Source: an uncultured Candidatus Saccharibacteria bacterium | GTDB lineage: Bacteria; Patescibacteriota; Saccharimonadia; Saccharimonadales; JAGQNJ01 | DNA length: 64,000 nt | Reading direction: 5' to 3' | NCBI GenBank assembly: GCA_964584895.1 | Contig: CAZPAW010000002.1 | Location: 66,748-130,747 of the forward strand | Shown: positions 39,818 to 59,281 of the stretch, piece after piece | Layout: each line of letters opens with the position of its first letter | Position numbering within the stretch: position 1 is the first letter of the stretch | Notes under the pieces: generated by a model | The model's input: only the letters and a program-made list of their open reading frames with translations | What the model was told of the DNA's origin: nothing | Database searches by the model: none | Made by a program: the position numbers and the translations under genes

Positions 39818-41464
39818 AATCGAACAGTTACCAAAAATTATCAATGGGGATGTGGTGGAATTGGTAGACACGCTAGTCTTAGGAACTAGTGCCGCAAGGC
39901 GTGTAGGTTCGAGTCCTATCATCCCCACCAAGAACGAACTTTTCGGGAAATTTGAGCGCATTTGCGCTCTTTTTTCTTTGGTTTTGCGGAGCAAAAACCA
40001 AATGTTTTCAGGGGGGAGAAAAGAATTTTGGGCAGCCGTAGGCTGCGCCTTTTTGGAATTCAAAAACAGGTTCAAACCGTCAATTTTGGCAAAAGCGTCC
40101 TTTATCGCCACAAAGTCGCCACTTTTTGCGATTTCACAGAGAGAAACGGCTTGTTTGAGCCACTGGCGCATAGGTTCAACCCAAGCTTTGCTGGCAAGCG
40201 TTAGCTTGCCGACTTGTTCCTCCAGCGACTTCTTTTCGCTCATTAGTTCGCCTTGTCTAGTGCGGTAGGTTTGCTGTTCAATATCTTGGTCTAAATAGCC
40301 GTCTAAAAGTCGCTGTAACTTGCCTTGCAAGTTCGCAAGTCGTGTTTGGGCATTAGCCACAAACACACTGGCAGACTGCTCGGCTTTGCGTTCGTCCTCG
40401 TCCAGCATTTTGCTCAAAGTCGTTGCCCAACTTTCGGGCAGGGCGTAGCCCTGCAATATGTCGGACAATTGCGCTGCTAAATCTTGCTCGGTAACTGGTG
40501 GCTCTTTGCAAGTAATAGTTTTGTGTTTTCTTGTACAACGGTAATAGATATATTCGTGCGTGTTGCCGTTTTTCTGGTGCTTTATCTTTTTCTCGGCGGT
40601 TATTGCCATATTACAAGTTGCACAAGTCAGCAAACCGCAAAACACCTGCGGCGCGGTTGCGCCTTTTTGAGGGTGGCAACGTTTGGCAATTACGGCTTGT
40701 ACTCGGTCAAATAGCCGTTTTTCAATTATTGCCTTGTGTTTGCCCTCGTACACCTCGCCGCAATAACGAAAATGTCCGAAGTAAAACGGGTTCGTTAGTA
40801 TGCGTTTTATCTGGTCTTTGGTCAGTTGTTTGCCGCTTTTGGTGGTAATGCCTCTGGACTTCATAAAAACGGCGACACTTTCAAGTGTTTGGTTGCCCTG
40901 TGTATATAACTCAAAAGCGGCTAAAATAACAGGCGCAAGCCGTTTGTTTACAATAACTGTTTTACTACGGACATCATTGATGTAGCCAATCGGGGCGTGG
41001 CTGGGGTACAACCCCAGCCGTACCTTTTGGCGCAAACCTCGCTTGGTGTTCTCGCTCAAATTGTCCACATAATACTTGGACTGCCCAAAAGCAATAGACA
41101 GCATAAATTTGCCTTGTGATGTGTTCTCAAACCAAAAAGACGGAAATTTGAGCGTGCCAATCTTGCCAGCGTCCAAAAGGTACACAATTTGCCCGCCGTC
41201 CACGCTATTGCGTGCAAGGCGATCAGGGTGCCACGCAAGTATATTGCCACCGTTCTTTTCAATTTCTGCCAGTAGTTTGCCAAAAATAGGGCGACCAGTT
41301 GTTTTTGCCGATTTCTTTTCTATAAACTCGGCGGCGATATACAAGCCTTCACGTTTGGCAAATTCTCGCAACTCCACGAGTTGCGCCTCAATAGACAAAA
41401 CCTGTTTGTCCTCAACATCTGTACTCTTGCGAGCATAGATGTAAAACTTTTGTATTGTTTCCAT
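39791..41464 (-). CDS. Large serine recombinase (integrase/invertase)
   Basis: The N-terminal resolvase domain has catalytic-Ser context YARKST and DRLARN. A recombinase domain, zinc ribbon (CGLLTCATCN...YYRCTRK) and coiled coil follow. RBS AAGGGGG. The ORF has no stop before IR-A or the att core. Its last 44 codons run antisense through tRNA-Leu to 39791, so the functional C-terminus is uncertain. Confidence 0.9.
   Translation of the reverse strand: METIQKFYIYARKSTDVEDKQVLSIEAQLVELREFAKREGLYIAAEFIEKKSAKTTGRPIFGKLLAEIEKNGGNILAWHPDRLARNSVDGGQIVYLLDAGKIGTLKFPSFWFENTSQGKFMLSIAFGQSKYYVDNLSENTKRGLRQKVRLGLYPSHAPIGYINDVRSKTVIVNKRLAPVILAAFELYTQGNQTLESVAVFMKSRGITTKSGKQLTKDQIKRILTNPFYFGHFRYCGEVYEGKHKAIIEKRLFDRVQAVIAKRCHPQKGATAPQVFCGLLTCATCNMAITAEKKIKHQKNGNTHEYIYYRCTRKHKTITCKEPPVTEQDLAAQLSDILQGYALPESWATTLSKMLDEDERKAEQSASVFVANAQTRLANLQGKLQRLLDGYLDQDIEQQTYRTRQGELMSEKKSLEEQVGKLTLASKAWVEPMRQWLKQAVSLCEIAKSGDFVAIKDAFAKIDGLNLFLNSKKAQPTAAQNSFLPPENIWFLLRKTKEKRAQMRSNFPKSSFLVGMIGLEPTRLAALVPKTSVSTNSTTSPLIIFGNCSILPCFFIKN
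39846..39930 (+). tRNA. tRNA-Leu (anticodon UAG), type II with long variable arm, CCA encoded
   Basis: Hand-folded. Acceptor GGGGATG/CATCCCC. D stem GTG/CAC. Anticodon stem CTAGT/ACTAG with loop CTTAGGA. Variable arm TGCCGCAAGGCGTG. T arm GTAGG-TTCGAGT-CCTAT. Discriminator A plus CCA. Confidence 0.93.
39925..40049 (+). repeat. IR-A left copy (125 bp)
   Basis: Reverse complement matches 41619-41743 at 123/125 positions (mismatches at 40026 and 40033). Starts with the last 6 nt of tRNA-Leu. Confidence 0.95.
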
Positions 41465-41586
41465 AGCTGTACCCCCTTGAACTCAAATAGCCGCCCTGTT
41501 GCACACAAATCAGGCAAGCCTAACTTGTACAGGACGGCTATTAAAGCCAAGCAAAAAGCCTGCCAAAATGATTTGTGTGCATTTGT

Positions 41587-41615
41587 ATTTTACCAAATAC
41601 CGCCAACTACGGCAA
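41587..41615 (-). promoter_or_regulatory. Candidate promoter of the recombinase gene
   Basis: On the minus strand: TTGCCG (41615-41610), 17-bp spacer, TAAAAT (41592-41587). The -35 box abuts the inner edge of IR-A right. Confidence 0.4.
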
Positions 41616-41618
41616 AAC

Positions 41619-41743
41619 GGCGCAGCCTACGGCTACCCAAAGTTCTTTTCTCCCCCCTGAAAACATTTGGTTTTTGCTCCGCAAAACCAAAGAAAAAAGA
41701 GCGCAAATGCGCTCAAATTTCCCGAAAAGTTCGTTCTTGGTGG
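41619..41743 (-). repeat. IR-A right copy (125 bp)
   Basis: Inverted copy of 39925-40049. Overlaps IR-B left by the 7-bp core ttggtgg (41737-41743). Confidence 0.95.
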
Positions 41744-41911
41744 AATTTTACAACTCCGCTAGAACCTATTTTGAGGAAAAGTGCTGAAAACTGCAAGGCG
41801 GCGGGCAACGCCCGCTCCGCCAGAAAAACAATTCTTTGCATTTTTTGAATTTTACCCCCGCCGAATTTCTTTTTTTGAATTTGGAAAAGAATTGTTTTTC
41901 TGGACGGTGCG
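41737..41911 (+). repeat. IR-B left copy (175 bp)
   Basis: A perfect reverse complement of 43102-43276, checked base by base. Contains an internal 18-bp-arm hairpin (41820-41837 / 41886-41903) and a GC hairpin GCGGGC-AAC-GCCCGC (41801-41815). Confidence 0.95.
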
Positions 41912-41928
41912 AACAGCGTAACTAGGCT

Positions 41929-43065
41929 TTAAGAAGAGTAGCTTCTATCGATACGGTCAGACAACGAGGTAACAACCTCATAATTTATAGTTTCGTATGC
42001 GCTCGCTATGTCGTCAGCTGTAATCGATAGCGAACCTTGTTCCCCCATTAGAATAACCTCATTACCGACGACAACTGAGCCGTCGATATCAGTAATATCA
42101 ATTACTGTTTGATCCATTGCTACGCTGCCGACTATCGGAGCAAATTGTCCATTTATCAAAACTTTGGTGGCATTGTGTGGCGTACGGCGGTAGCCATCGC
42201 CATACCCGACTGGTAGTAGTGCAATGGTGCTTTGTTTTTCGGCTTTCCAGCGCCGGTTGTAACCCACCGTTTCTCCTGGCTCAATAGTTCTCACAAAAAT
42301 TACTTGCGTTTTAAATGATAGGACGGGCTTGAACTCTTTAGCAACAAATTCGTATTTCTGGTGTTCCTCTGGGAAAGGATTGAGCCCATATGTTATCAGG
42401 CCCGGCCGAACCATCGTAAAGTGCGCTTCTGGAAAATTGATAATTGCGGCACTATTAGCACAGTGTATCAACGGAGGGTTGATTCCTTCATTTTGCAGCA
42501 TATTAAGCGAATCGTTGAATACCTTTAGCTGTTGGTGCGTAAACGCAACATCTAATGCTTCTGACTCAGCAAAATGCGTAAATAAGCCCTCTAGTTCCAT
42601 GTGTGATGAGTGCTGTATGGCTTGAGCAAGAGCAAGTAACTTATCGGGGTCGCAACCTGCCCTATGCATGCCTGTATCAATCTTAATATGAACCTTGGCT
42701 TTCTTTCCTTGAGTACTGGCGGCTCCCTCGATAGCAGATAGTATCTTTTCGTCCATGACTGTGATAGATGCATCAAGCTGGATTGCTTCCATAACTGAAG
42801 CTTTATCGAGGTAATTAAGTAACAAAATTGGTGCACGAACACCTGCGCTACGGACTTTTTTAAGTTCACCCAAGCTAACAACGCCTATATAGGTTGCTCC
42901 AGCTTCAATGGCTTTCTTAGCCGTCTCTTCAATACCATGTCCATAGGCGTTAGCTTTCACAACAGCCATCACTCTTGTATCATTTGATACAATTTCCAGT
43001 ATCTTTGAGATATTATGAGCATAATTTCCAAGGTTTATATCTGCTACAGTTAGTCGGTTTGGCAT
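41929..43065 (-). CDS. alr: Alanine racemase
   Basis: 378 aa. PLP-lysine motif AVVKANAYGHG and a C-terminal beta domain. TATAAT (43078-43073, minus strand) lies 7 nt upstream of the ATG. Confidence 0.93.
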   Translation of the reverse strand: MPNRLTVADINLGNYAHNISKILEIVSNDTRVMAVVKANAYGHGIEETAKKAIEAGATYIGVVSLGELKKVRSAGVRAPILLLNYLDKASVMEAIQLDASITVMDEKILSAIEGAASTQGKKAKVHIKIDTGMHRAGCDPDKLLALAQAIQHSSHMELEGLFTHFAESEALDVAFTHQQLKVFNDSLNMLQNEGINPPLIHCANSAAIINFPEAHFTMVRPGLITYGLNPFPEEHQKYEFVAKEFKPVLSFKTQVIFVRTIEPGETVGYNRRWKAEKQSTIALLPVGYGDGYRRTPHNATKVLINGQFAPIVGSVAMDQTVIDITDIDGSVVVGNEVILMGEQGSLSITADDIASAYETINYEVVTSLSDRIDRSYSS

Positions 43066-43101
43066 ACTTACGATTATAGCCTAAATGTCGCCTGTGGCGA
43101 C

Positions 43102-43276
43102 CGCACCGTCCAGAAAAACAATTCTTTTCCAAATTCAAAAAAAGAAATTCGGCGGGGGTAAAATTCAAAAAATGCAAAGAATTGTTTTTCTGGCGGAGCG
43201 GGCGTTGCCCGCCGCCTTGCAGTTTTCAGCACTTTTCCTCAAAATAGGTTCTAGCGGAGTTGTAAAATTCCACCAA
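43102..43276 (-). repeat. IR-B right copy (175 bp)
   Basis: A perfect inverted copy of 41737-41911. Ends with CCACCAA (43270-43276). Confidence 0.95.
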
Positions 43277-43428
43277 TGAAACAAGATCGTCATCTGACGG
43301 TCTTTTTTCATTTTCGAGTGTTGAAAGACTCGAACCCTGGTCGAAAATCGCCTGTGGCTGTTTTCGTTTTACTTGCTTGTTGCTATGCGCAATGACTTCA
43401 GTCATTTTACCGCTAGCAGAAGATGAAG

Positions 43429-43446
43429 GAGCCCTATCATCCCCAC
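43429..43446 (+). pseudogene. Remnant of a tRNA-Leu 3' end
   Basis: gagCcctatcatccccac matches tRNA-Leu 39911-39928 (gagTcctatcatccccac) at 17/18 positions, in the same orientation, 153 bp beyond the element edge. Confidence 0.6.
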
Positions 43447-43638
43447 TAACAAAGATATCGCCCATAGTGGCGATTCTTTAATTAGTCTAGGGATGGCAGA
43501 TTTGAACTTCACCCCAAGAGTAAAGGCGAGAATAGCTCGACGACTATCCGAACGTAAAACTTCTAAATTCAAATTCTTTTTACGTATAAAAACGATAAGA
43601 GCTCTATTAATTGTAAAAGTGATAAACTATTAAGTATT

Positions 43639-56549: not shown

Positions 56550-56813
56550 ATGACAGATTTAAATGTTGATTCATTGATACCTGAAAAATGTAGAGATGCG
56601 AATGGCCAAGGCTGTGGTGAACTAAAATTAAAAATCGAAGAAGATGTTGCGTTAGGTGTTGACCCATCAACCTATTCCCTGCATTGGGCTGACAAATTAT
56701 GTAGTGGTTGGAGCGAGGAAAATGGTTGTGGGCACGCAGGCATTGGAATGATGCAATGTGTTGGTGAATTAGCAGTAGAAATATTTAACAATAGAAGGCA
56801 TGGAGAACAATAG
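56550..56813 (+). CDS. Hypothetical Cys-rich protein (87 aa) inserted between rpsG and fusA
   Basis: Five Cys ([27 protein letters not shown]). Its TAG overlaps the fusA GTG by 1 nt. Confidence 0.45.
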
Positions 56814-58900
56814 TGGCGGATAAAAAAATTGATCTAAAAAATTATAGGAACATCGGCATTATCGCGCATATTGATGCTGGTAAAACCACGACAACTGAAG
56901 GTATTCTTTACCGTACAGGATTAAAGCACAAAATTGGCGCTGTTCACGAAGGTGAAACTACAACTGACTGGATGGAGCAAGAGCGAGAACGTGGAATCAC
57001 AATCACCTCTGCCGCTGTTACTTGCTTCTGGAAAGATCACAAGATCAATATCATCGATACGCCAGGACACATCGACTTTACTGCAGAAGTTGAACGATCG
57101 CTTCGCGTGTTAGACGGGGCTGTTACGGTATTTGACGGTAAAATGGGTGTAGAAAGCCAATCAGAGACCGTATGGAGACAAGCTAATAAGTATAACGTTC
57201 CTCGCATCTGTTTTATTAACAAAATCAATCAAACGGGTGGCGACTTTTACAAATCTCTTGACACTATTCATGCGAGACTAACTAAACGAGCTTTCCCTAT
57301 ACATTTGCCTATTGGCTTTGAGCAGTCAATTAATGGAATCATTGATCTGATTAATATGAAGGCCTACACATATAAAGAGTTTACCGATCATGAATTGGTG
57401 GAGTCTGAAATACCTGAAGATATGCTTGATCAGGTCAAAAAGTATCGTAGTCTACTAATCGAGAATGCTGTAGCAGAGGATGAAAAGATCTTAGAAAAAT
57501 TCTTTGAAGTTGGCGAAGAAGGACTGTCGGAGGACGAAATCCGACAAGCTGTGCGAACGGCAACACTAACTAGTGACTTTTTTCCTGTAACGGGTGGCGA
57601 TGGACGCGGGGTTATTGTAGAGAAAGTACTTGACGCTGTTAATGACTTTTTGCCAAGTCCACTTGATCGTGGTTCTGTCTGGGGTACACATCCTAAAAGT
57701 GGTGACGAGATCGAGAGAAAACCAAGTGAAACTGAACCAATGTCAGCGCTTGCTTTCAAGATTGCAACAGACCCATTTGTAGGAAAATTATGTTTCGTTA
57801 GAGTTTACTCAGGCAAGCTTCAAGCTGGTTCATATGTTTACAACAGTTCTACTGGCGAAAAAGAACGCGTTGGACGAGTTGTACGAATGCAGGCCGATAA
57901 ACGCGAAGATATAACTGATATTAGTGCTGGTGATATTGCTGCCATCGTTGGACTCAAGGGAACAACTACTGGTAACACTTTATGTGATGTTAACAATACA
58001 GTAGTACTAGAGAATATCACATTCCCTGATCCACCAGTGTCAATTGCGATTGAACCAAAAACGAAAGCCGACCAAGAAAAGATGGGTATTGCACTGCAAC
58101 GTTTAGCAGAAGAAGATCCAACCTTCCAGGTAAAAGTTGATCACGAGACTGGTCAAACGATCATTAAGGGTATGGGTGAGTTACACCTAGAGATTATTGT
58201 TGATCGAATGAAACGCGAGTTTGCAGTCGAAGCTAACATCGGTCAACCTCAAGTTGCTTACCGCGAAACTATCCGTAAAGATGGTATTGAAGTGCAGGGC
58301 AAATTCATTCGTCAATCTGGTGGACGTGGTCAATATGGTGATGTATGGCTTCGTTTGTCTCAGAACGAACAAGGTAAAGGATTTGAATTTATTAACAAAA
58401 TTAAAGGTGGCGTAATCCCGGCAGAATATATAAAACCAGTTGAAGAAGGTATCAAAGAGGCTATGAACAATGGTGTGTTAGCAGGATACCCGGTCGTTGA
58501 TATTGTTGCAGAACTCTACGATGGTAGTTACCACGATGTCGACTCGAGCGAAATGGCCTTTAAAGTTGCTGGGTCAATGGCTTTGCAATCAGGTGTTAAA
58601 CAAGCATCGCCAGTACTACTAGAACCTGTCATGAAAGTTGTTGTTGTAACCCCAGAAGAATTCATGGGTGAAGTTATCGGGGACCTCAACAGTAAACGTG
58701 GACGAATTGAATCAATGGAAGACTTAACCGCGGGAATCAAAGAGATTACAGCGTTCGTTCCTCTGGGTGAGATGTTTGGCTACACCACAAACTTACGAAG
58801 TAATACTCAGGGTAGAGCTAGTTCAAGTATGGAACTTGACCACTACGAAGATGTTCCTAACAACGTCGCCGAAGCTATTATTGCTAAAAACAATAAATAG
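56813..58900 (+). CDS. fusA: Elongation factor G
   Basis: 695 aa with a GTG start after GGAG. Motifs AHIDAGKTT and DTPGHIDF. Confidence 0.97.
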
Positions 58901-58917
58901 AAATATAATTAATCAGA

Positions 58918-59131: not shown

Positions 59132-59215
59132 GCTAGTTCAAGTATGGAACTTGACCACTACGAAGACGTGCCTAACAACGTCGCTGAAGCAATCATCGCT
59201 AAAAATAGTAAATAG
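59132..59215 (+). pseudogene. Displaced, diverged copy of the last 27 codons + stop of fusA
   Basis: 84 nt, 76/84 identical to 58817-58900. The first 35 nt are identical. Seven of the 8 differences are synonymous in the fusA frame (ends KNSK* versus KNNK*). Confidence 0.85.
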
Positions 59216-59281
59216 TACAAAATTTACAAGAAACTAATAGCGATACAAAAAAGACCCTTAGAATAAATTGCTACACTGTCA

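Follow-up and report, generated by a model that had tools for sequence, protein, structure and literature searches.

Two-module elements at tRNA ends of Patescibacteria with a serine recombinase gene that runs across its own attP-like site

What kind of element leaves a tRNA gene followed by two abutting pairs of long inverted repeats, one around a recombinase gene and the other around a gene for alanine racemase? This question is raised by positions 39925-43276 of a 64,000-nucleotide (nt) stretch of DNA, here called the window (contig CAZPAW010000002.1, positions 66,748 to 130,747), from an uncultured Candidatus Saccharibacteria bacterium. An earlier reading, made from the letters of the window only (hereafter the sequence-only reading), had seen here an insertion by a serine recombinase at the 3′ end of a tRNA-Leu gene, and had pictured the free form as a circle laid out like the 2-micron plasmid. 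Comparison with related loci indicates that 39925-43276 is almost certainly one copy of a widespread mobile element of Patescibacteria, driven by a large serine recombinase (LSR) of a family that acts at tRNA ends. The earlier description had the layout right; it missed that the open reading frame (ORF) of the recombinase extends across the core of the junction, that a tail of the enzyme is encoded in a neighbouring repeat arm (arm B), and that this arm also carries a mimic of the tRNA end.

Results

Layout of the element

A repeat search of the window found two inverted-repeat pairs, IR-A and IR-B (Table 1), which are also its only inverted repeats of at least 40 nt. The arms of IR-A are 131 nt long, 98% complementary and 1557 nt apart; the 125 nt described earlier, matching at 123 of 125 positions, are the cleaner part of this repeat. 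Those of IR-B are 175 nt long, 100% complementary and 1190 nt apart. The two pairs share seven nucleotides (TTGGTGG), and CCACCAA stands at both outer edges, as the sequence-only reading had it. When the window is probed with 38-41 nt of each arm, every probe turns up exactly two times, once on either strand, against a dinucleotide-shuffle expectation of 0.00. G+C content is 44-50% inside the insert and 33-39% in the flanks.

Only two genes lie between the arms, an LSR and an alanine racemase (alr), and Pfam agrees with the earlier naming of both. ARAGORN and Rfam agree likewise on the tRNA-Leu end at the core. The element sits exactly between the discriminator-CCA end of the tRNA gene and the terminator of that gene: the DNA past its right edge is a terminator hairpin such as normally follows a tRNA gene, in line with the earlier view of this side as native post-tRNA sequence. 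Promoter and terminator calls throughout are consensus matches, and all data are assemblies rather than reads.

By its Pfam domains, invariant residues and fold, the enzyme is an LSR. PF00239 matches residues 8-151 (E = 4e-21; YIYARKSTDVEDKQ), with R12, S14 and T15, the catalytic R-x-S-T context, invariant in 40 homologues; PF07508 (1.4e-15) and PF13408 (Zn_ribbon_recom, 4e-07) follow, and the zinc-ribbon cysteines C277, C282, C285, C311 and C320 are invariant in homologues. An AlphaFold2 model of a homologue, with a mean predicted local distance difference test (pLDDT) score of only 67, has long paired helices at 345-392 and 398-428, and Foldseek matched it to full-length serine integrase complexes and to LI integrase (4kis), Bxb1 and phiC31 (E 5e-16 to 1e-08). 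No Phage_integrase domain was found in the element by Pfam. A viral origin was considered and dropped: a scan of IMG/VR returned no relative, and phage integrases are at most 26% identical to the recombinase. With only the recombinase and alr inside the element, and no room between the arms for another gene, it contains no directionality-factor gene; such a factor is possibly encoded elsewhere in the genome.

A widespread family at tRNA 3′ ends

The survey comprised 79 loci from GTDB species genomes and loci found via single proteins, with self-BLAST and ARAGORN run on all. Searched for in other genomes in this way, the layout recurs in 55 elements, the one in the window included, in which the 3′ end of a tRNA runs into one of the arms that flank a recombinase module. 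In 40 of the 55 a cargo module, likewise flanked by arms, abuts this one, giving the order tRNA 3′ end, arm-recombinase-arm, arm-cargo-arm. The elements use 21 anticodons for 13 amino acids, and often there are several per genome, at many tRNAs. Median arm lengths are 132 nt (A) and 175 nt (B), with median within-pair identities of 99.4% and 100%; arm pairs are 98-100% identical within an element and divergent between elements. The hosts are Saccharibacteria and also, with protein identities of 45-50%, lineages of Microgenomates and Parcubacteria type. Homologues of the recombinase number in the thousands (7866 of 8000 scored candidates); most are unnamed, and the named ones are from Saccharibacteria.

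The recurrence bears on the suspicion that the structure is an artefact of assembly or amplification, a join that is chimeric or palindromic. Many contigs in public assemblies do end inside arms, and inverted joins are typical of amplification chimeras. The same architecture is found, however, in 54 other elements that differ in sequence, tRNA, cargo and project, on contigs with SPAdes-, MEGAHIT- and JGI-style names and in a record titled 'complete genome' (L013, CP064994.1). Moreover, in the independent Logan assembly of SRR13355620 a 1250-nt contig consists of the unique alr segment plus 30 nt of each IR-B arm, and contigs from the hisS side begin 30 nt inside arm B′. Breaks exactly k-1 bases into the arms are to be expected of a k=31 graph if the repeat is real in the reads. 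Recurrence across independent assemblies, sequences, tRNAs and cargo therefore practically rules out an artefact, and the chance of a chimera raised in the sequence-only reading is contradicted by both lines of evidence.

Some loci depart from the common picture. Six (L006, L022, L023, L047, L062, L083) lie on short contigs binned in metagenome-assembled genomes labelled Spartobacteria, Gammaproteobacteria, Acinetobacter or Clostridia. The deviating composition of the element probably misled the binning, rather than the element having crossed phyla, given that all except L083 (46%) are 74-94% identical to Saccharibacteria elements. Three loci of about 46% identity (L067, L069, L073) adjoin a tRNA in the same orientation with arms undetectable or degenerate (80%); they are copies in decay or else a simpler form of the element that has no arms. 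L091 has an extra ORF of 109 residues (816-1145) between arm A and the recombinase promoter.

Junctions, core and tRNA mimic

Let T be the tRNA side, X the downstream native DNA and c the core. In all 40 full elements the left junction J1 is T.c.A, the reverse complement of the internal junction J2 is B′.c.A, and the right junction J3 is B′.c.X, so that the three junctions share halves as first read from the single locus. The right halves A and X are unrelated in sequence; X at other loci is likewise a hairpin, differing from locus to locus. The shared core is 4-10 nt long (in the window, only the 7 nt of CCACCAA are repeated at J3) and corresponds in every case to the discriminator and CCA of the tRNA at which the element sits, namely CACCA (Leu), TACCA (Arg), CGCCA (Ser), AGCCA (Gln) and CTCCA (Thr and Lys). 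CCACCAA, which had been taken as the core, is indeed common to the three junctions of the window, but the crossover region is narrower. Across Saccharibacteria the minimal core is ACCA and in the distant clade TCAC; these overlap at A73-C74, which to judge from the alignments is probably the crossover dinucleotide.

Since A73-C74 is non-palindromic, each site has a polarity. With J1 and J3 in direct and J2 in inverted orientation, the action of a serine recombinase could remove the two-module unit as a whole, but could only invert a module on its own. This speaks to the idea that the modules are independently mobile cassettes, as in an integron, each excising and inserting alone at the shared core. 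Such cassettes would suit the movement of cargo between recombinase lineages (below), the arms, which are structured imperfect palindromes recalling attC, and the existence of multi-module arrays (L003, L009, L065). Yet the cores around one module are inverted and have no palindromic dinucleotide (CCACCAA / TTGGTGG), which would give inversion and not excision. Tandem arrays (L009, L092) show a strict recombinase/cargo/recombinase/cargo alternation, fitting a two-module unit and not single cassettes; among the arrays surveyed there is no run of cargo modules behind one recombinase, and recombinase modules that at first seemed solo proved to have a B arm next to them. We regard independent cassettes as very unlikely. 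L065 (1559-10339 of CAWASW010000011.1) has one recombinase module at tRNA-Gln and, adjoining it, a 4.6-kb arm-flanked segment at tRNA-Lys in which a further cargo pair and recombinase pair are nested; elements can therefore insert into one another.

Where units stand in tandem (L009, L092, L093), the junction between them is a hybrid, B2′.c.A1, and an incoming attP must therefore have recombined with a hybrid site, attL or attR. L093 and L009 9675-12684 are 99.97% identical, on a contig of 587 kb.

At its outer end, over 30 nt, arm B′ resembles the tRNA end that the element targets. This stretch reads AGGTTC(T/G)AGC-N15-NCACCA, and the tRNA reads GGTTCGAnnCC-N9-NCCA; the last bases of the mimic equal the discriminator-CCA of the target tRNA. 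In 33 of 37 elements, the distant clade included, the distance from the core to the GGTTC motif is 4 nt greater in B′ than in the tRNA itself. In LI integrase bound to attP, the zinc-ribbon motif reportedly lies about 5 bp further out than in attB half-sites, and the offset of 4 nt is in keeping with a P-type half-site in B′ and a B-type one in the tRNA. In the left copy, arm B, the reverse complement of the T-loop mimic is GCTAGAACCT (41758-41767). A mirror of the mimic was sought in arm A: no GAACC stands at the expected distance, and there is only a motif resembling GTTC some 12 nt away from the core.

A recombinase gene that spans its own site

The core at J1 lies within the recombinase frame. 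Residues 1-511 (41464-39932) make up the conserved protein, the last 42 or so codons before the core being carried by the minus strand of arm A; beyond the core the ORF reads the tRNA in antisense (GMIGLEPTRL...) to a chance stop. The same holds throughout the family: in 55 of 55 elements the ORF has no stop before the core, ending instead 20-284 nt into the tRNA antisense, and these chance stops account for the scatter in length of the homologues (520-557 residues). The frame is open through arm A in 55/55 elements, against 34/110 for the other two frames.

At J2, where arm A′ is joined through the core to arm B, the frame finds another end. Read along A′.c′.B, it stops after exactly 14 codons in 33 of the 55 elements, with a tail of the form xFYNxARTYFEEKC. 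In the window this native tail is ...SSFLV followed by EFYNSARTYFEEKC, with its stop at 41785-41787 (ORF 41575-41787), so that the full-length recombinase ends ...FLVEFYNSARTYFEEKC. Relatives only 45% identical have a related tail of 12-15 residues, NVFEQIRTYFKSNC and a stop. An intact, inverted spare of the last 56 codons thus stays at J2. Among the best 120 protein clusters, 82 end in tRNA antisense, 15 in a native tail and 23 otherwise or truncated. We also considered that proteins with the native tail occur only on short contigs and hence come from circles; this was dropped, as distal units of tandem arrays have a native-type tail too, L093 with its match in L009 being the case in point.

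Arm A itself lacks the marks of ordinary coding sequence. Its codon-position entropies are 0.91 / 0.91 / 0.92, with no third-position excess, against 0.65 / 0.49 / 1.07 in the body of the gene, and the arm-encoded residues 478-510 have pLDDT below 50 in the AlphaFold2 model. On this pattern of variation, arm A is evolving as structured DNA with its frame kept open, and we take an open frame with no coding signature to be kept by selection for access to the tail that arm B encodes.

Structure of the arms

Arm A holds a GC-stem terminator hairpin (39954-39969) with a T run, 24 nt after the CCA, then a second hairpin (39977-40002), a G6 run and a terminator-like hairpin (40032-40046). The hairpins show compensatory changes across an alignment of 35 elements. 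The first would be a replacement terminator for the tRNA.

Arm B comprises the mimic, a GC hairpin, and a long hairpin with an 18-bp stem (41820-41837 / 41886-41903) and a loop of about 50 nt, in which CCCCCGCCG (41855-41863) is kept in most of the elements L003-L058. In 12 of the 18 stem pairs both partners vary, and a score as high as the observed one came from 0 of 500 shuffles; 86.5% of alignment cells are paired, compared with at most 69.5% when the partner is slid. Many pairs are G-T, favouring the B-sense strand. The mirror copy of the hairpin lies within arm B′. Candidate roles are an accessory site of the recombinase, a structure in the 3′ untranslated region when the recombinase mRNA is full-length, or a site for priming on a single strand. 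Rfam returned only the tRNA; its sub-threshold matches to miRNA precursors reflect this long hairpin.

Orientation and exchange of modules

The 3′ end of the recombinase gene faces the tRNA (state I) in 55 elements and points the other way (state II) in 2-4. Two flipped elements (L025, L031) have the promoter-side arm abutting the tRNA, on contigs that end in the far arm; L089 is flipped, of low coverage and probably chimeric; and L090 is flipped or circular, its contig reading A-U1-A′.c′.B-U2-B′ with both ends inside arms, which fits a circle or state II. L089 and L090 both have native tails. The orientation of the cargo relative to the recombinase is close to 50:50. The flipping of either module that had been predicted from the window is thus borne out insofar as both cargo orientations, and rarely both recombinase orientations, occur in nature, but it is strongly asymmetric and may be driven by the recombinase or by homologous recombination.

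Inverted repeats around both segments, and the occurrence of these orientations, would also be expected of a domesticated invertible switch (an inverton or shufflon) in which the recombinase acts as an invertase on the cargo or on its own gene, giving phase variation in a unit no longer mobile. The promoter-like site of alr, however, lies just inside arm B′ by consensus scan and so belongs to the invertible unique segment, and inversion would not switch alr off; the -35 hexamer of the recombinase promoter-like site, from the same scan, is at the inner edge of arm A′. A fixed switch also fits poorly with 21 anticodons with matching cores, unrelated cargo, foreign G+C content and tandem hybrids. 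Hin/Gin-type invertases and invertons, moreover, have a small serine invertase or a tyrosine recombinase that acts on short inverted sites, around a promoter or gene segment, at a fixed chromosomal locus, and the present enzyme is an LSR of 511 residues found at 21 anticodons. A switch is a highly improbable explanation.

Cargo is varied and mostly metabolic: methyltransferase with HD, LigT with S51 peptidase, NUDIX, Ldh_2, zinc alcohol dehydrogenase, queuosine salvage, flavin adenine dinucleotide (FAD) oxidase with disulphide oxidoreductase, PadR with a BtrH-like protein, and hydrolases. L003-Tyr and L014 carry the same 1481-nt cargo, 96% identical and inverted, next to recombinase modules only 77% identical, and further cargo is found both ways in L005 and L010 and in L037 and L044. 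Cargo modules are exchanged between recombinase lineages. The breakpoints of exchange are inside the arms: inner arms go with the cargo, and the outer 20 nt or so, containing the mimic, stay with the recombinase lineage.

Such exchange might be had from a single LSR integration followed only by homologous recombination, in which RecA-type exchange after natural transformation swaps and flips the modules, a circle is not regularly formed and the tail has no regulatory meaning. Arms that are identical within an element and divergent between elements follow the pattern of gene conversion, swap breakpoints lie inside the arms and not at the core, and inverted arms would accept fragments either way, which fits the cargo orientations. 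This account, however, leaves unexplained the precise inverted B′.core.A at J2 in every element, the frame open through arm A in 55/55 with its fixed-stop tail of 14 codons, the hybrid tandem junctions exactly at the core, and the recombinase orientation, which is not randomised. We consider it rather improbable, though far from negligible.

Features of the window

Coordinates of the parts of the element are collected in Table 1. Two observations lie outside it. At 43429-43447, 150 nt past the right junction, a tRNA-Leu 3′ end occurs once more, in part (GAGCCCTATCATCCCCACTA; 85% identity with 39911-39937), followed by its own hairpin terminator (43457-43474). This segment (43429-43474) looks like a relic of an older integration at the same tRNA, in the style of tyrosine-integrase islands; the 150 nt in between have no match in the other loci. 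Further away, the last 85 nt or so, stop included, of a 695-residue ORF (56813-58900) are repeated 315 nt downstream at 86% identity (58817-58911 / 59132-59226), suggesting that the 3′ end of the gene was displaced, perhaps by a small insertion or by an old integration where the gene ends.

Table 1. Features of the element at 39925-43276 and its borders (window coordinates)
Feature	Position	Strand	Evidence or remark
tRNA-Leu(tag), intact; discriminator-CCA end = target half-site (T)	39846-39930	+	ARAGORN; Rfam tRNA 60.5 bits
Junction J1 core CCACCAA (T.core.A; attL-like)	39925-39931	+	shared identity narrows to ACCA across the family
Arm A, left IR-A copy	39925-40055	+	repeat search; z = -3.5; hairpins covarying in 35-element alignment
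Large serine recombinase, ORF as it stands, 557 aa	39791-41464	-	PF00239, PF07508, PF13408
Promoter-like site of recombinase, TTGCCG-17-TAAAAT with TG	41587-41615	-	consensus scan only
Arm A′, right inverted IR-A copy; mirror terminator 41714-41699 on minus strand	41613-41743	+	repeat search
Junction J2 core TTGGTGG; A′.core′.B = inverted intact attP-like site (B′.core.A)	41737-41743	+	
Detached spare of recombinase 3′ end: arm A′ codons, core and first 45 nt of arm B	41619-41787	+	
Arm B, left IR-B copy	41737-41911	+	repeat search; z = -3.5; stem covariation
Cargo gene, alanine racemase (alr), 378 aa	41929-43065	-	Pfam Ala_racemase_N 6.9e-71, Ala_racemase_C 2.7e-43
Promoter-like site of alr, TCGCCA-16-TATAAT	43073-43100	-	consensus scan only
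Arm B′, right IR-B copy; mimic of tRNA T-loop and 3′ end at outer edge, AGGTTCTAGCGGAGTTGTAAAATTCCACCA (43246-43275)	43102-43276	+	
Junction J3 core CCACCAA (B′.core.X; attR-like)	43270-43276	+	
X, displaced native sequence 3′ of tRNA; terminator hairpin 43283-43304 and T run	43277-43312	+	

Discussion

The above comparison supports insertion by an LSR at a tRNA 3′ end, as first proposed for the window, and leaves the question of how such an element would move. The model that best accounts for the observations, and that we think probable, joins a circle bearing two inverted attP sites to an integrase that truncates itself. The free form is likely a two-attP circle, with two inverted copies of B′.c.A, each about 300 bp, separating the modules. 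The recombinase would pair one attP with the tRNA end (attB, T.c.X) and exchange strands within ACCA. Insertion via the attP inside the recombinase gene would give state I, the arrangement of the window and of about 95% of chromosomal copies, with loss of the native tail; insertion via the other attP would give state II, with both modules flipped.

Truncation would disable or attenuate the enzyme, and the insertion would then be locked without a directionality factor. The surviving attP at J2 would hold the inverted spare of the gene's 3′ end, and one inversion across IR-A, homologous or site-specific, could rebuild the full-length gene, re-arming the element for inversion or excision. State II would stay reactive, by inversion with J2 or by excision, making state I a sink. 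Because state I dominates despite the symmetry of the circle, we propose that the full-length enzyme is the active one. The self-disarming tail is the tentative part of the scheme and could well prove wrong. The near-identical long arms would permit rare homologous inversion or gene conversion, keeping the arm pairs identical, and would allow cargo swaps in either orientation; cargo orientation would be randomised by the choice of attP, by inversion between J2 and J3 or by homologous replacement. Arm A would also supply the tRNA with its new terminator.

Several points weigh against this model. A symmetric two-attP circle should give the two recombinase orientations in equal numbers, which is not what is seen (55 versus 2-4), so that an extra assumption is needed, either of an unstable state II or of state I as a sink; orientation calls around 130-nt repeats can also be wrong, and the state II contigs end inside arms. 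The conservation of the 14-residue tail overlaps the DNA-level mimic (GCTAGAACC encodes A-R-T) and may partly reflect a binding site. To our knowledge, canonical LSRs do not recombine attP with attL or attR, though the tandem arrays need such a reaction. In L091 and L092 the arms around one recombinase gene are heterologous, only 78-80% identical; these are recombinant or tandem-array units, showing core exchange between lineages. Finally, an empty site was looked for: in metagenome contigs of the Joint Genome Institute (JGI), scanned for exact matches, neither T.c.X nor X by itself turned up. Among the retrieved loci, none of which is closely enough related, there was no empty tRNA-Leu(tag) with the same flanks, and the ORF predicted for an empty site, used as a query against proteins, brought back only the ORF spanning J3. 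No circle was seen directly, and one would not be recognisable by its junction, because J2 has the same sequence.

The model can be carried further, to a self-disarming and re-arming integrase that needs its tail, is suited to naturally competent hosts and forms the serine-recombinase counterpart of the integron; taken as a whole, we judge this unlikely. J2 is complementary to the joined ends (B′.c plus c.A), and a single strand of the integrated element, once taken up by a competent cell, could fold into two stem-loops which, when stacked, would rebuild a double-stranded attP. Each strand would have one conserved hairpin in the B sense, possibly a priming site.

Relation to known systems

The enzyme has the resolvase, recombinase and zinc-ribbon/coiled-coil build of phiC31, Bxb1, A118/LI integrase, SPbeta SprA, SCCmec Ccr and Tn4451 TnpX. 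Like other LSR integrative elements and prophages, the element appears to insert conservatively and site-specifically, with few shared crossover bases and an attP-type motif further from the centre than the attB-type one, here by 4 nt. It differs from them in having two putative inverted attP and long inverted repeats around both modules, in an attP that lies inside the integrase ORF, 14 codons before its stop, and in its target, the discriminator-CCA end of many tRNAs, which one attP half mimics. It differs also in reusing hybrid sites in tandem arrays and in leaving no room for a directionality factor.

P4-like islands, Islander-type islands and the tycheposons of Prochlorococcus depend on tyrosine recombinases, and the tRNA 3′ fragment that they displace remains as a direct repeat tens of bases long. 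The present element resembles these islands in its insertion at a tRNA 3′ end with the tRNA kept intact, in forming small cargo islands in streamlined genomes and in its tandem arrays, but shares only 4-10 nt with its target, probably crosses over at the discriminator-CCA and uses a serine recombinase. With the 2-micron plasmid and FLP it has in common a circle, here inferred, split into two unique halves by long inverted repeats with recombination sites. The likeness drawn in the sequence-only reading therefore stands for the inverted-repeat layout and stops there: FLP is a tyrosine recombinase, and the plasmid replicates and uses inversion for copy-number amplification, whereas the element has no replication gene, shows no sign of amplification and has sites that serve chromosomal integration.

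Integration-dependent immunity of mycobacteriophages reportedly rests on an attP within the repressor gene, such that integration alters the C-terminus and thereby activity or stability. Here, too, an attachment site in an ORF means that integration alters a C-terminus, but the split gene is that of the integrase itself, of serine type, and an inverted spare 3′ end is kept. Integrons likewise have a fixed platform that gathers small accessory cassettes, and sites that are structured imperfect palindromes with covariation. IntI, however, is a tyrosine recombinase acting on folded single-stranded attC, and integron cassettes are individually mobile and mostly promoterless, whereas here the polarity of the core forbids excision of a single module and alr has a promoter-like site.

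The sequence-only reading had not recognised the architecture among described LSR elements. A full-text literature search, whose coverage excludes subscription-only papers, likewise found no description of dual inverted attP, an attP in the integrase ORF, a tRNA-end mimic or the two-module layout; it is possible that the family has been described in the subscription literature.

Implications

The element offers a natural case of an integrase gene that spans its own attachment site, with apparently stable integration without a directionality factor. Serine integrases are tools of genome engineering, and there would be practical interest in a clade with a readable target rule, made up of a tRNA-like motif, a spacing shift of 4 nt and a core that matches. 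The arms probably add to the breaks in Patescibacteria assemblies beside tRNA genes. For the organisms themselves, the question is how accessory genes are gained, which is poorly understood in the Candidate Phyla Radiation (CPR)/Patescibacteria, whose genomes are tiny. A major route may be this element family, whose cargo includes genes for alanine racemase, malate/lactate dehydrogenase, alcohol dehydrogenase, NUDIX, queuosine salvage and FAD oxidases; and were the self-disarming and re-arming reading true as a whole, the family would be the main cassette-trafficking system of CPR bacteria.

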